From an uncultured delta proteobacterium (GTDB lineage Bacteria; Desulfobacterota; Binatia; Binatales; Binataceae), in assembly GCA_963842085.1 (NCBI GenBank), contig CAWJET010000001.1, positions 1,856,001 to 1,920,000 on the forward strand: a stretch of 64,000 bases of DNA, read 5' to 3'. Positions 14,334 to 33,498 of the stretch are shown here, in pieces. A model generated the notes under the pieces. It was not told the DNA's origin and made no database searches. It was given only the letters and a program-made list of their open reading frames with translations. Position 1 is the first letter of the stretch. The number at the start of each line of letters is the position of its first letter. Made by a program: the position numbers and the translations under genes.

Positions 14334-14923
14334 CGTCCGCTCCCTGTGGATGCCGGCAGCCTGGCCGCCGACCACGCATCCCAGCCGCCAGTGAAGACGC
14401 TGACGTTGCTGAAGCCGAGACTCAGCAACGCGTTCGCCACGAGGCGGCTGTCATGACAGTCGCCGCCGGAGCAGTACACAATGATCGGCTTGTCATGGGC
14501 GGCCTGCAACACGCCGGCCAGGCGCCGATAGTCTTGCGCGAAATCGTCTCGCGCGAGGTTCAACGCGCCCGGCACGTGTCCATTTTCGAAGAACACCGAC
14601 GGCCGGGCATCAAGGATGAGTGCGCTCTTGCGGTCGACGGCTGAACGGAATTCATCAAGTGTGACAGTTGCCGCGGGCGCGATCTTGAAAGGCGGCGCCG
14701 CGACCAGAGTCGTCAGCTCGGCATCGAAGCGCTGTTCAGGCGTTTGGTAGACCATAGGAAGTGGCGCGGCCGAAAAACGGTTCATCGCGAGCCCGGTGGC
14801 CAAAGCCGCTATAGCGAGCAGGGCGACGCTAACGAGGTCGCGCAGAATCTGCGATCTGAGACTCCTCGCTGGAGGCAGGTGCGACGGCTTGTTGGTGACA
14901 ATCGATGACACTGCTGAAGTCAT
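14330..14923 (-). CDS. Membrane-anchored rhodanese-domain protein (CxxxxC loop)
   Basis: N-terminal TM; LDARP..F..GHVPGA, VYCSGGDCHDS, FTGGWDAW. Confidence 0.88.
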   Translation of the reverse strand: MTSAVSSIVTNKPSHLPPARSLRSQILRDLVSVALLAIAALATGLAMNRFSAAPLPMVYQTPEQRFDAELTTLVAAPPFKIAPAATVTLDEFRSAVDRKSALILDARPSVFFENGHVPGALNLARDDFAQDYRRLAGVLQAAHDKPIIVYCSGGDCHDSRLVANALLSLGFSNVSVFTGGWDAWSAARLPASTGSGR

Positions 14924-28977: not shown

Positions 28978-29841
28978 ATGGACCAGTTCAAAGTCGGCAA
29001 CGTCAAGATAACCCGGATTGTCGAGAGCGAGGCGCCATGGCCCGGCACCTGGCTCCTGCCCGACGCAACTTACGAGAACGTGAAGCAGGAAGCCGACTGG
29101 CTCTATCCCACTTTCTCCGACGAGAAGGGCAAGCTCCGCATGAGCATCCACGCGCTCGTCATCGAGTCGCAGGGCAAGCGCATCATCGTCGACACCTGCA
29201 TCGGCAACGACAAGGTCCGTTCGAACCCGGTGTGGAGCAATCTGAAGCTGCCGTTCCTGAGCGACCTGGAAAAGGCCGGACATACGCGCGACAACATCGA
29301 TCGTGTCATCTGCACGCATTTGCACGTGGACCACGTCGGCTGGAACACGATGCTCAAGGACGGCAAGTGGGTGCCGACGTTCCCCAACGCCCGCTACCTG
29401 ATTGGCGGCACCGAGTGGGATTACTGGTCGCACTTCGACGGCAAGGACGCGCGCGACCCGGTCGAAGATTCGGTGCGCCCGGTTGTCGACGCTGGCGTTG
29501 CCGATCTGATCGACTCAAACTTTCGTGTCACCGACGAAGTGTGGCTCGAGCCGACGCCCGGTCACACTCCGGGGCATCACAGCGTGCGGATTTCGTCGAA
29601 CGGGCAAGAGGCAGTGATCACCGGCGACCTGATGCATCATCCGATTCAATGCCGCTATCCCGAATGGGACGACAGTTTCGATTCCGACGGCGCGATGGCC
29701 AAGAAGACGCGGCGCGCATTCTGCGAAAAGTATGCCGACACCAACGTCGTCGTTTTCGGAACGCATTTCGCGACGCCATCGGCGGGAAAGATCTCGAAGA
29801 AAGGCGACTCGTTCAGGTTCACGGCATCCAAATCACAGTAG
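28978..29841 (+). CDS. MBL-fold metallo-hydrolase
   Basis: VDT, THLHVDHVGWN, PGHTPGH, GDLMH, GTHF; AGGAGG RBS. Confidence 0.93.
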   Translation: MDQFKVGNVKITRIVESEAPWPGTWLLPDATYENVKQEADWLYPTFSDEKGKLRMSIHALVIESQGKRIIVDTCIGNDKVRSNPVWSNLKLPFLSDLEKAGHTRDNIDRVICTHLHVDHVGWNTMLKDGKWVPTFPNARYLIGGTEWDYWSHFDGKDARDPVEDSVRPVVDAGVADLIDSNFRVTDEVWLEPTPGHTPGHHSVRISSNGQEAVITGDLMHHPIQCRYPEWDDSFDSDGAMAKKTRRAFCEKYADTNVVVFGTHFATPSAGKISKKGDSFRFTASKSQ

Positions 29842-29845
29842 CGTC

Positions 29846-30499
29846 ATGGGTGACGTTGCGCTTTCGTTCGACAATGGCCCCGATCCCGCCGTGACGCCGG
29901 TGGTGCTCGACGTGCTCGCGCACCGCGGCGTGAAGGCGTCGTTCTTCGTCCTCGGAAAAAATCTCGCGATGCCGGAGCGGATGAAACTCGCCCAGCGCGC
30001 GGCGGCCGAGGGGCATCGAATCGGCAATCATTCGTACACGCATCGCATACCACTAGGCGACGACCCCGCTGCGGATGCCGTCGATTCGGAAATCGCAAAA
30101 ACCGAGCGGCTGATCGGCGCGCTCGCCGAAACGCCGAAACTGTTTCGTCCGTTCGGCGGCGGCGGCAAGATTGGGCCGCATCTGCTGAGCCGCGCCGCGG
30201 CCGATCACCTGGTCGCCAATCGTTACACCTGCGTGCTCTGGAATTGCGTGCCCGAGGATTGGATCGATCAGGACGCGTGGGTCGAGCGCGCGCTTCGCGA
30301 CGTCTCGACGCGGCCGCATACGCTGGTCGTGATGCACGACATCCTGCTGCGCGCGATGAGCCATCTCGATCGCTTCATCGGCGCGCTCGAGGACGCTGGA
30401 CATCGCATGACGCGCGAGTTTCCCGCCGAATGCGTGCCGATCGAGCGCGGCCAGATCGTCCGCGATATTTCGGGAATCGTGTCTTGCGCGCGCGTTTGA
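29846..30499 (+). CDS. Polysaccharide deacetylase (CE4/NodB-like)
   Basis: SFDNGP, GNHSYTH, FRPF, DW, MHD. Confidence 0.88.
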   Translation: MGDVALSFDNGPDPAVTPVVLDVLAHRGVKASFFVLGKNLAMPERMKLAQRAAAEGHRIGNHSYTHRIPLGDDPAADAVDSEIAKTERLIGALAETPKLFRPFGGGGKIGPHLLSRAAADHLVANRYTCVLWNCVPEDWIDQDAWVERALRDVSTRPHTLVVMHDILLRAMSHLDRFIGALEDAGHRMTREFPAECVPIERGQIVRDISGIVSCARV

Positions 30500-30511
30500 T
30501 AGCCTGACGAC

Positions 30512-31018
30512 ATGGGCACGCATTCTCGCGAAATTTTCCGAGCGCGCCGCTCAATCGTATTTGCGATTGCCGGTGCGATCGCTTTGTCGCTGACCGCGCC
30601 GGGGTTCGCGTTCGACATCGGGGCGCTGCTCAACAACAAGCCAAAAGAGCCGGACAAGTTCGCGATCATCCGCGTCGAACAGCTTGCTTCGCTGATGGCC
30701 GATCCGAATTCGCACGTCAACATCTATGACGCGAACGGATGGGGCCTGCGTTCGACGGCCGGCGTGATTCCCGGCGCGCATCTTCTCACCAGCGACGACA
30801 AGTACAACGTGGCGAAAGAGTTGCCCCCCAACAAAAGCGCGAAGCTGGTCTTCTACTGCGCCGACCTGCATTGAACCGCGTCGCATGAAGCCGCCCGGCG
30901 GGCGGCAGCAGCGGGTTATACCGATGTGAGCGTGATGAGCGACGGCATCCAGGGCTGGAAGCACGCCGGCAAGCCGGTCAATTATCCAAGTCTTGACGGC
31001 AACACGAAGACCGACTGA
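30512..31018 (+). CDS. Exported rhodanese-domain protein, probable selenoprotein (UGA at 30872-30874 read as Sec), 168 aa
   Basis: The fold continues in frame after TGA: VFYCADLH-U-TASHEAARRAAAAGYTDVSVMSDGIQGW..AGKPV; a hairpin follows the UGA. Confidence 0.8.
30890..30906 (+). promoter_or_regulatory. Candidate bacterial SECIS hairpin
   Basis: GCCGCCC-GGC-GGGCGGC, a perfect 7-bp stem with a G-leading loop 22 nt after the UGA. Confidence 0.6.
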
Positions 31019-31051
31019 TCTGAGCTACTCTCTCGCGCCCGCCATCGCGCG

Positions 31052-32863
31052 ATGACATATAGTGTCGGCGTGCAGCGCGACATTCCAATTCCAGAGCCGT
31101 CGACTGCGCCGCTGCGTGAACTGACGCGTCGCAGTATCGTGCTTGGCATCGCACTGGCGCTGATCCTCGGCGCGGCGAACGCCTACCTCGGCCTGTACGC
31201 GGGCCTGACCGTCTCCGCGAGCATCCCGGCTGCCGTCATCTCGATGGCGATTCTGCGGATTCTTGGCGGCTCGACGATTCTCGAAAACAACGTGGTGCAA
31301 ACGATCGCGTCGGCAGGCGAAGCGGTTGCAGCCGGCGCGATTTTCACGTTCCCGGCGCTGGTAATCCTTGGCGGCGTCAGGACGCTGCCGTACGTCGAAG
31401 TGACGGCGCTATGCGTCGTCGGCGCGACGATGGGCTCGTTGCTGGTGGTGTTCTTGCGCCGTGCGTACGTCGTCGAGGAGCGCCTGCCGTTTCCCGAAGG
31501 GGTCGCGTGCGCGGAGGTGCTTCGGGCCGGTGACGCGCAGGCGAATGTTCGTCCGTTGGTAGTAGGCGGTTTGATCTCGGCGGCTCTCAAAGCGCTTCAG
31601 GACGTCGCCGGAATTATTCCCGGCGCCGTCTCAGGCGCGCGATGGGTCGGAAGCGCCGCGATCGCCGGGTCGCTTGATATTTCGGCGGCGCTGCTCGGCG
31701 TCGGTTACATAATCGGAATCAGGATCGCGGCGCTGGTATTCGCAGGCGGCGCATTCGCCTGGCTGGTCGCGATTCCGGTACTAACGGCGTCACATCCCGC
31801 ATACGGAACGGGCGACGCCGGCACGACCGCGTCGCAACTGTGGAGCACCCAGGTGCGCTATCTCGGGGTCGGCGCGATGCTCACGGGCGGGGTCGTGACA
31901 CTATGGCGGCTGCGCACGCGCATCGCCTCCGCAATCGCCGAGAGCATCCGGATCGTGCGCTCGGCGCACGCCGTCGCCACGGCGCGCGAGGACACCGATC
32001 TTTCGGCGCGCGCGGTGCTGACTGCGGTGGCGCTTTGCGTGCCGATTATTTTCGCCATCTGTCTGGGCCTGAGCGGGCAAGTCGCGCTCAGCGCGTCGCT
32101 GGCAGTGTTACTCACACTGATCTGTTTTTTCGCGACGGCGATCGCCGGCTACCTGACCGGAATAGTCGGCGCGTCGAACAATCCGGTGTCGGGTGTCACC
32201 GTGATCGTATTACTCGCGGTGGCGCTGTTTCTGAAATTCGCCGGAGTGTCGCAGAGCGCCGGGCCGCACCTGGCGATTCTTGCCGGCGCGATCGTATGCA
32301 CGGCGGCCGCAATGGCGGGTGATTCCCTGCACGATCTCGCGACCGGCTTTCACGTTGGCGCGACGCCGCGCTCGCTCGAAATAGGAGTGCTGGTCGGCGC
32401 GATCGCTTCATCATTCGTGATGGCGCCGATTCTGAATTTGCTGATCGCCGGCTACGGAATCGCAGGCACTGCGACCGCGCGCGCGGGTGCACTGGCGGCG
32501 CCACAAGCGTTTCTGATGGCGAAAGTGACGCAGGGAGTTTTCCACGGCGGACTACCGCTCGGGACAATAGCGACCGGCGCGGCGCTCGCGGCGCTTCTCG
32601 GATTCAGCGATCGCTACCTGGAACGGATCGGATCGAAGTGGCGCACGCCGATCATGCCGGCCGCGATCGGTCTCTATCTCCCGTTGGGACTCAGCGTAAC
32701 CATCTTCATCGGCGCGCTGGCGCACTCCCTCTTGGGACCCGAGGATGAGGCAGAGAACGGACCCGGGATTCTGCTCGCGGCCGGTCTGGTGGCAGGCGAA
32801 GCGCTGATGGGAGTTGCGAGCGGCGCGATAGTCACGGCGGGAATCCGGCTGCCGCTTTTTTGA
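31052..32863 (+). CDS. OPT family oligopeptide transporter
   Basis: ELT.R, NAYLGL.AGLTVSASIPAA, ENN.VQT.ASAG, FPEG.A, NNPVSG, APQA. Confidence 0.95.
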   Translation: MTYSVGVQRDIPIPEPSTAPLRELTRRSIVLGIALALILGAANAYLGLYAGLTVSASIPAAVISMAILRILGGSTILENNVVQTIASAGEAVAAGAIFTFPALVILGGVRTLPYVEVTALCVVGATMGSLLVVFLRRAYVVEERLPFPEGVACAEVLRAGDAQANVRPLVVGGLISAALKALQDVAGIIPGAVSGARWVGSAAIAGSLDISAALLGVGYIIGIRIAALVFAGGAFAWLVAIPVLTASHPAYGTGDAGTTASQLWSTQVRYLGVGAMLTGGVVTLWRLRTRIASAIAESIRIVRSAHAVATAREDTDLSARAVLTAVALCVPIIFAICLGLSGQVALSASLAVLLTLICFFATAIAGYLTGIVGASNNPVSGVTVIVLLAVALFLKFAGVSQSAGPHLAILAGAIVCTAAAMAGDSLHDLATGFHVGATPRSLEIGVLVGAIASSFVMAPILNLLIAGYGIAGTATARAGALAAPQAFLMAKVTQGVFHGGLPLGTIATGAALAALLGFSDRYLERIGSKWRTPIMPAAIGLYLPLGLSVTIFIGALAHSLLGPEDEAENGPGILLAAGLVAGEALMGVASGAIVTAGIRLPLF

Positions 32864-32876
32864 CAGGATATTTTGC

Positions 32877-33498
32877 ATGCGACCGATCCTCATCTCTGTC
32901 CGGGACATCACCTGGATTTGCGGGGTTGCATTGATTTTGTTCGCCGCACCGGTGCGAGCGCAGGCGGGTCACTTCTATGACGGTTACCCAGACGAAGGTG
33001 ATTCGGTTCATACCGCCGATCCCGACCGGCGACGTGCGCGAAGGTTCGTGCTGGACTGAATCGATCTCCGTTACGCGGGTTGGTGCTTGGCGGTGCATGG
33101 TCGGTAATGCGATCAGCGATCCGTGTTTCACGATACCCGGCAATCGTACGCAGCTCGTATGCGACGCCAATCCCGCCCTCAAAACCGACGGCTTTGTTTT
33201 GATGCTCACCAAGCCGTTGCCCAGGTCATCGCTTCCCAATCGGAAGCCGGAACCCTGGCTCTTTCGTCTGGCTGACAATTCGATCTGCGAGGCGATGACC
33301 GGGACGCTGTCGCCCGTGAACGGCGAGCCTGCGCGATGGGCTTGCGCGGTACACATCCGCGATCAGGTCAGACCGTCGGGACTGGTGACGGCGCTAATGC
33401 CGGGAAAAATCTGGACGGCCGACAAATTCCCGGAAAGCGCGATCGGCAAGCAAGGCGTCGAGCCGCAAAGAGTGCCGGTGAAGACGGTCTGGGAGTGA
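32877..33498 (+). pseudogene. Secreted Cys-rich protein split by a +1 frameshift (or sequencing error)
   Basis: Signal peptide MRPILISV...PVRAQA is in one frame and the mature six-Cys domain (32977-33498) is in the +1 frame; removing one G from GGG at 32966-32968 fuses them. Confidence 0.6.

Follow-up and report, generated by a model that had tools for sequence, protein, structure and literature searches.

Does a TGA that falls within the active-site loop of a rhodanese-like protein, in the DNA of a Candidatus Binatus-type soil bacterium, end a protein, break one, or specify selenocysteine (Sec)? The TGA in question (30872-30874) closes a 120-aa open reading frame (ORF; 30512-30874) that ends ...KLVFYCADLH-TGA, and the same frame continues beyond it for 47 codons (TASHEAARRAAAAGYTDVSVMSDGIQGWKHAGKPV...) as far as a true stop TGA at 31016-31018. 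All positions refer to the window, by which we mean the whole 64,000-nucleotide stretch of DNA that was analysed. The initial annotation had taken the 47 codons for the C-terminal half of the rhodanese, which translation and the Pfam match described below bear out, and had proposed that the gene encodes a hidden selenoprotein. We assign a probability of about 0.88 to the reading that 30512-31018 encodes, as one gene, an exported selenoprotein with a single domain of the rhodanese fold, whose read-through product would be 168 aa long with one Sec. The features to which this reading refers are:

30512-31018, + strand: complete predicted selenoprotein gene of 168 codons, with Sec as codon 121 (translation; Pfam Rhodanese; homologs colinear to the end)
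30512-30613, + strand: putative signal peptide, residues 1-34 (RARRS, hydrophobic core, AFA/FD), as read from the sequence
30857-30859, + strand: codon of Cys116, the canonical catalytic Cys of the rhodanese loop (YgaP profile alignment)
30872-30874, + strand: UGA, a predicted selenocysteine codon (Sec121), five loop positions on from Cys116 (TGA/Cys column in homologs; contigs of a second study)
30890-30906, + strand: candidate hairpin of the bacterial SECIS (bSECIS) type, with a 7-bp GC stem, 6 bp of it conserved, and a GGC apical loop at 30897-30899 (fold, pairing, synonymous sites)

The Pfam Rhodanese model (PF00581) runs directly across the TGA, matching residues 56-151 of the read-through protein at 40.6 bits (E 3.8e-10) against a gathering score of 22.2. 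In an AF2 model built from a 25-sequence alignment the pLDDT exceeds 90 over residues 50-160 and falls below 55 over residues 1-40, the leader, and the top Foldseek matches of this model are all rhodanese domains, namely those of YgaP, Sud, TSTD1, persulfide dioxygenase-rhodanese fusions and LmACR2 (probability 1.00; TM ~0.5 when normalised to the 168-aa query). A profile alignment to the rhodanese domain of YgaP (FHCQAGKR) sets C116, which is invariant in 25/25 aligned sequences, on the active-site Cys, and Sec121 on the sixth and last residue of the loop, five positions further on. Profile score, fold and catalytic Cys all place the protein within the rhodanese homology domain PF00581. When longer, fused homologs were sought only 2 unrelated multi-rhodanese proteins were returned, a weak indication that this rhodanese stands alone.

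One rival reading takes this for a broken Cys-rhodanese gene, its TGA being due to nonsense mutation or to a mistake of sequencing or assembly, which a single window cannot exclude. We collected homologs from 61 related genomes, 13 further stretches of DNA and 40 loci of a public genome collection, the latter nearly all labelled as Candidatus Binatus, Binataceae, Binatia or ‘uncultured delta proteobacterium’ soil MAGs, and removed identical copies to leave 48 distinct homologous sequences. At column 121 these carry TGA in 41 cases, drawn from many genomes, and Cys in the remaining 7 (TGC in 4, TGT in 3). One of the 41 TGA forms (L033) comes from a genome flagged as unpublished, and no claim made here depends on it alone, the count without it being 40/47; the row of the other genome so flagged (G018, no stop) was left out of the column count. 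Relatives with as little as 41-53% protein identity still have the TGA, among them members of other families of the class. A protein-database search gave a complementary picture, in that 11 of the best 120 matches are full-length proteins of 152-168 aa with Cys at column 121, while the other 109 end at that very column, cover 63-71% of the query and have no Pfam domain. The placement of the TGA exactly at a second Cys, giving a CxxxxU motif, was thus correctly called in the initial annotation, which had also expected that homologs would show either Cys or TGA here.

A second study points the same way: contigs from three of its runs also have TGA at this site, with 0, 0 and 1 other letters, the single differing letter being position 30534. 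In public annotation the database pieces of 110-138 aa are mostly named ‘hypothetical protein’ where a source names them at all, which counts in favour of broken genes. In our view the shared column, the second-study contigs and the coding pattern after the TGA together refute an error or nonsense mutation, and we give it a negligible chance. The systematic mistake would instead lie in the databases, where 109 of the 120 nearest proteins appear as truncated pieces that a Sec reading would correct.

Evidence that the region past the UGA is translated comes from the way in which it varies. When 39 Sec forms are compared pairwise over offsets +36 to +113, their differences are distributed over codon positions 1:2:3 as 2329:2002:6570. 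Variation in the 47 codons past the UGA is thus concentrated at third positions, which means that they are translated. Gene callers stop at the TGA, and the gene's own terminal stop is likewise a TGA, both of which would suit a true stop with the 120-aa N-terminal fragment as the product and the following 47 codons either untranslated or translated separately. Such a fragment would however lack the last helix-strand-helix of the rhodanese fold as seen in the AF2 model, the downstream peptide is conserved with differences that are mostly at third positions, the Cys forms are colinear full-length proteins, and no in-frame start codon is visible by eye just past the TGA. A true stop at this position appears highly improbable to us, and a gene continuing to 31018 is the reading that we retain.

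One contig of the RNA-library run X20 also bridges the UGA (30690-30949). With 27 other letters it is the contig of a relative, and it was rejected as proof that the gene at 30512-31018 is transcribed.

Decoding of UGA as Sec requires dedicated machinery, which the initial annotation had suggested looking for, and the genome (two contigs, 4.93 Mb) proved to hold all of it above the model cut-offs: selA scored 558.5 bits (cut-off 267.9), selB 367.5 bits (cut-off 242.25), selD 379.7 bits (cut-off 125) and tRNA-Sec 70.9 bits (cut-off 47), ARAGORN assigning the latter the anticodon tca. The features by which a bacterial selenoprotein is recognised, i.e. a UGA/Cys alignment, a hairpin fitting the bSECIS model, the selA/selB/selC/selD set and coding conservation after the UGA, are accordingly all found here.

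SelD is itself a selenoprotein in this bacterium, with an in-frame TGA in ...KAAG-TGA-AGKLGP, and its gene adjoins selB (L001; contig 1, 2098030-2101956, minus strand). Downstream of the UGA in selD the structure of lowest energy has a CCUU loop, not GGC, although a GGUCC-GGC-GGACC hairpin is possible by eye.

We next consider the hairpin, which lies within the codons for a conserved peptide, AARRA. Its perfect stem, GCCGCCC-GGC-GGGCGGC, folds at -13.7 kcal/mol, and its loop begins 22 nt after the UGA. According to the legend of Fig. 2 in PMC13188914, bacterial SECIS elements have an apical loop of 3-9 nt, an upper stem of 4-16 bp, a G within the first two letters of the loop (usually as G[G/U]), a UGA-to-loop distance of 16-37 nt and a minimum free energy of <= -7.5 kcal/mol. 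With its 3-nt G[G/U]C loop, 6-7 bp, 22 nt and -13.7 kcal/mol the hairpin falls within all four of the constraints as given in that legend, and the SECIS-like hairpin with a G-leading loop that had been noticed at the outset stands. Rfam returned no SECIS family in a scan of 30400-31200 at E<=10, only three sub-threshold chance matches.

Hairpins arise readily in GC-rich DNA, and by itself this one would be weak evidence: the 65-nt fold has a z of -1.37, with 19/200 shuffles folding as well, and for the 17-mer 4/200 shuffles did so. What lifts it above chance is conservation, that of the TGA column (41/48 homologs) included. The 6-bp core (CCGCCC/GGGCGG) keeps its pairing in 98.2% of cells when 38 Sec forms are aligned, the only changes being two C-to-U wobbles that keep a G-U pair and four unpaired cells, and the loop reads G-G-C in 31/40 and G-U-C in 9/40 Sec forms, an additional Sec form (L091) also having GGC. 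None of the 6 conserved pairs shows a compensatory change in the 38 sequences (0/6), because the stem hardly varies, and the case for an RNA element consequently turns on synonymous sites. The stem has four third positions, at offsets +20, +23, +29 and +32 from the UGA, all of them four-fold degenerate. In Sec forms these depart from consensus in 1/156 cells versus 130/445 at the other downstream four-fold sites, and for the seven Cys forms the corresponding figures are 9/27 cells in the stem versus 19/75 elsewhere, with the reservation that the sequences compared are related and hence not independent. The constraint is therefore present only where a UGA needs decoding. A caveat is that the AARRA peptide may by itself favour GC-rich, self-complementary codons, as it is conserved in the Cys forms too and still gives partial GC hairpins there. 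An additional lower helix (columns 16-22 with 44-49) was rejected as part of the element, since it is paired in only 78% of cells; one of its pairs is changed on both sides in 2 sequences.

These data also bear on whether the UGA might be read through other than as Sec, or not only as Sec, whether by near-cognate insertion of Cys or Trp or with a product that forms only when selenium is available. The evidence presented here is at the level of sequence, and Cys evidently works at this column in 7 homologs, both of which speak for such a reading. The complete Sec machinery, the synonymous constraint that is specific to Sec forms and falls on a hairpin fitting the bSECIS model, and the same pattern in other CxxxxU genes of the genome leave it only a slim chance. 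That SelB and tRNA-Sec decode the UGA as selenocysteine, guided by the hairpin 22 nt downstream, is in our assessment very probable, and selenium is accordingly a predicted constituent of the protein. With the TGA column conserved, the downstream codons coding and the Sec genes in place, the proposal of a real selenoprotein gene holds up well, and we are about as confident that this is a true Sec-decoded rhodanese.

Other rhodanese genes of the same genome can be set beside this one. A second CxxxxU candidate (L055; contig 1, 130000-133500, + strand) reads VYCGKFT-TGA-TRAQEA, with the UGA at locus position 1838 and a GGUC-loop hairpin 17 nt after it, and its 512-aa frame leads into a membrane, ion-channel-like C-terminal part; congeners have rhodanese matches with one TGA in frames of ~430 aa that are probably the same gene. 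A third (L104; contig 2, 240300-242600, minus strand) reads VVVYCRDSL-TGA-DLSARAAAQ, with the UGA at about locus position 1126, a 178-aa continuation and, 20 nt past the UGA, a perfect 7-bp stem with GGC in its loop. The window holds a second rhodanese as well (L099), at about 14336-14635 on the minus strand, in a 260-aa frame with a hydrophobic segment ahead of the domain; its loop, IIVYCSGGDCHDS, which the initial annotation had used for comparison, is of the CxxxxC type with Cys at both positions and no TGA.

The N-terminus of the Sec-rhodanese had been described as a signal peptide with an RR pair, and RARRS, a hydrophobic stretch and AFA/FD can indeed be seen in the sequence. Hydrophobic leaders are present at the N-termini of all homologs inspected. 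The RR pair occurs in 36/46 of them, a figure that depends on a rough automatic choice of starts; two homolog leaders are lipobox-like, and distant members have leaders without RR or with lipoboxes. Pfam and NCBIfam scans of the read-through protein gave no match to a Tat signal model at E<=0.1. Export, by either a Tat or a Sec route, is a well-supported prediction.

To place the protein among its wider relatives a profile search was run over 1.84 billion representatives, of which 226 cluster representatives matched at E<=1e-30. Among the best 150 of these 226, 146 carry [FY]YCxxxxC-x-A-[SA], 2 end at the second Cys column (both as FYCAD[LI]H) and 2 lie outside the pattern. The protein accordingly belongs to a large family of small exported rhodaneses with an invariant CX4C loop, some with tandem domains. 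This FYCxxxxC family of single-domain rhodaneses is unnamed, has leaders in the members inspected, and differs from the protein of 30512-31018 in having Cys where the latter has Sec; its Binatia branch has Sec as the second Cys. A quick family tree is poorly resolved (28/49 inner branches being open), and the one result taken from it is that its well-supported branches force at least 3 Sec/Cys changes. Two loci (L043/L079 and L092) have a Cys form and a Sec form of the gene in tandem, immediately ahead of the OPT gene, an arrangement that looks like a Sec form paired with a Cys backup.

At the second, non-catalytic loop position nature offers a clean Sec/Cys pair, a good system in which to ask what selenium adds to a resolving residue, and the tandem Sec and Cys paralogs of two genomes extend the comparison. 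The residue that precedes the column also differs between the two forms: it is His in 36/39 Sec forms and Leu in 3/39, and in the 7 Cys forms it is Q, R, M, V or L, never His. Where it is His the codon before Sec is CAT or CAC (30869-30871 in the window, and in homologs), a preference that may be chemical or one of decoding context.

How novel is such a protein? A 2026 review already lists rhodanese-like selenoproteins in five forms, with the motifs UxxS, UxxG, CxU, UxxG and UxxxxU (PMC13188914). As described there, these forms likewise place Sec within or at the active-site loop of a PF00581 domain. Forms 1, 2 and 4 were compared through their descriptions in the review only; for form 1 (UxxS; WP_010941598.1) the local U-T-A-S fits the described motif, a compatibility at the level of the motif. 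Form 3, rhodanese_LYCAU (NF041203), matches at 33.5 bits against a cut-off of 115 and has, by the review's motif, CxU in place of the CxxxxU found here. Form 5, TsoB (WP_332113227.1), supplies the best NCBIfam match (NF045694, E 5.9e-12), with residues 96-160 lying on profile positions 96-160, yet at 44.5 bits against a cut-off of 805 this model does not claim the protein. The N-terminal rhodanese domain of TsoB, as outlined in the review, is of the same size and has the same four-residue spacing between reactive positions, so that its UxxxxU presumably matches C116/U121 column by column; TsoB differs in having two Sec and a DsbD-like membrane domain, versus one Sec and no DsbD domain here. 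We conclude that the protein is a genuine, unannotated rhodanese-like selenoprotein of a kind already known in outline.

The passages of PMC13188914 consulted make no mention of Binatia or of export. Our literature search found no description of selenoproteins of the Binatota and, among the papers listed, nothing on a rhodanese selenoprotein paired with an OPT transporter. The present gene would add an exported rhodanese to the selenoproteome of the Binatia, a phylum of soil bacteria for which we found no description of selenium use. Geobacter ExtH, a 49-kDa protein described as rhodanese-like (PMC5877670), was considered and set aside as having no bearing on the exported CX4C family.

The characterised rhodaneses with a single reactive Cys act by a persulfide ping-pong mechanism, and two of them, Sud and PspE, are periplasmic. 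YgaP, PspE/GlpE, Wolinella Sud and human TSTD1 share the fold and have the catalytic Cys at the same place, but carry Arg, Thr or Ser at loop +5 and hence no second reactive residue. Cys116 would be the usual persulfide carrier. A second chalcogen five residues on, where the cradle loop ends, is invariant in the family and suggests an intramolecular Cys-S-Se-Sec (or S-S) bond. In the scheme that we propose Cys116 would take up sulfane sulfur or selenium, or be oxidised; Sec121 would then resolve the Cys116 adduct through a Cys116-Sec121 selenenylsulfide. As this bond forms, the transferred atom would be set free or a substrate reduced, and a periplasmic reductant would then open the bond again by reduction. 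The protein might in this way be a redox-cycling sulfur/selenium transferase or reductase rather than a plain ping-pong rhodanese. Such a resolving role for Sec121 is a possibility that we put at somewhat short of even odds, the chemistry being read from the residues and their spacing. The fusion of the TsoB rhodanese to a DsbD-like electron conduit, as presented in the review, fits the idea of Cys-Sec redox cycling and does not test it.

Genes around the rhodanese were then examined for possible partners. The nearest features are:

29732-30499, + strand: gene of the polysaccharide deacetylase family, its end 12 nt ahead of the rhodanese start and its synteny limited to the genus (Pfam Polysacc_deac_1)
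31052-32863, + strand: OPT family transporter gene, 33 nt downstream of the rhodanese (TIGR00733, 497 bits against a cut-off of 182.5; Pfam OPT)
32835-32854, + strand: hairpin resembling a terminator, with a T run, where the OPT gene ends; a likely operon end (consensus scan only)

The initial annotation had gone further and proposed that an MBL hydrolase, the deacetylase, the Sec-rhodanese, the OPT transporter and a secreted Cys-rich protein form one envelope system for sulfur or selenium transfer. All five genes lie on one strand with short gaps, and of the 40 public loci 36 have OPT downstream on the same strand, 31 have the MBL gene, 30 the deacetylase and 21 the Cys-rich ORF. This synteny is confined to one genus, and its retention as a whole may reflect relatedness only. 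Of the seven loci with <= 66% identity, four retain OPT, one retains MBL, one the Cys-rich ORF and none the deacetylase; the three at which OPT was not found are L091, L093 and L094. Terminator-like sites, again from a consensus scan, follow the MBL gene and also the OPT gene, ahead of the Cys-rich ORF. The MBL protein resembles a lactonase and the deacetylase the PgdA/NodB-type enzymes, both below cut-off, and from these resemblances neither has an evident link to sulfur. As only OPT persists in the distant loci, the five-gene system is unsupported, and we rate it very unlikely. Among the neighbours the rhodanese-OPT pair alone qualifies as a candidate functional unit.

The Cys-rich ORF itself (32977-33498, + strand, 173 aa) follows the terminator-like site of the OPT gene and is kept at 57-82% identity in the 21 loci that have it. 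It gave no Pfam or NCBIfam match.

The Sec-rhodanese is probably co-transcribed with the downstream OPT gene, and would probably work with its product, e.g. on thiol- or peptide-bound sulfur or selenium species that are taken up. Functional coupling is the more tentative element and to us rather doubtful. Yeast OPT proteins transport glutathione, and selenite and glutathione reportedly give rise to a selenium-substituted rhodanese; any connection with glutathione-bound selenium is speculative here. To our knowledge few bacterial OPT transporters have known substrates, and the constant OPT neighbour thus offers a testable lead for one of them.

A bolder proposal would be that the Binatia repeatedly turned the resolving Cys of CX4C rhodaneses into Sec, with three such genes in this genome, and that the exported Cys-Sec rhodanese and OPT constitute a two-gene periplasmic module capturing thiol- or peptide-bound selenium or sulfane sulfur, for example as glutathione-type selenotrisulfides or persulfides, and passing it inward. 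We consider this proposal unlikely as a whole; if true, the rhodanese-OPT module would be an undescribed route of selenium or sulfur acquisition.

No redox partner gene is linked to the Sec-rhodanese. Among 25 ORFs near five distant loci there were no thioredoxin, DsbD or sulfur genes, those present encoding acyl-CoA enzymes, a regulator, ABC parts and MoxR/VWA. When TsoB was sought in the bacterium's own genome, only a Sec-free DsbD-like ORF matched. This ORF (L096; contig 1, 1156957-1158120, + strand; 598 aa) covers TsoB profile positions 178-571 at 411 bits without the Sec-rhodanese domain, and might supply reductant to periplasmic proteins of the Cys-Sec type.
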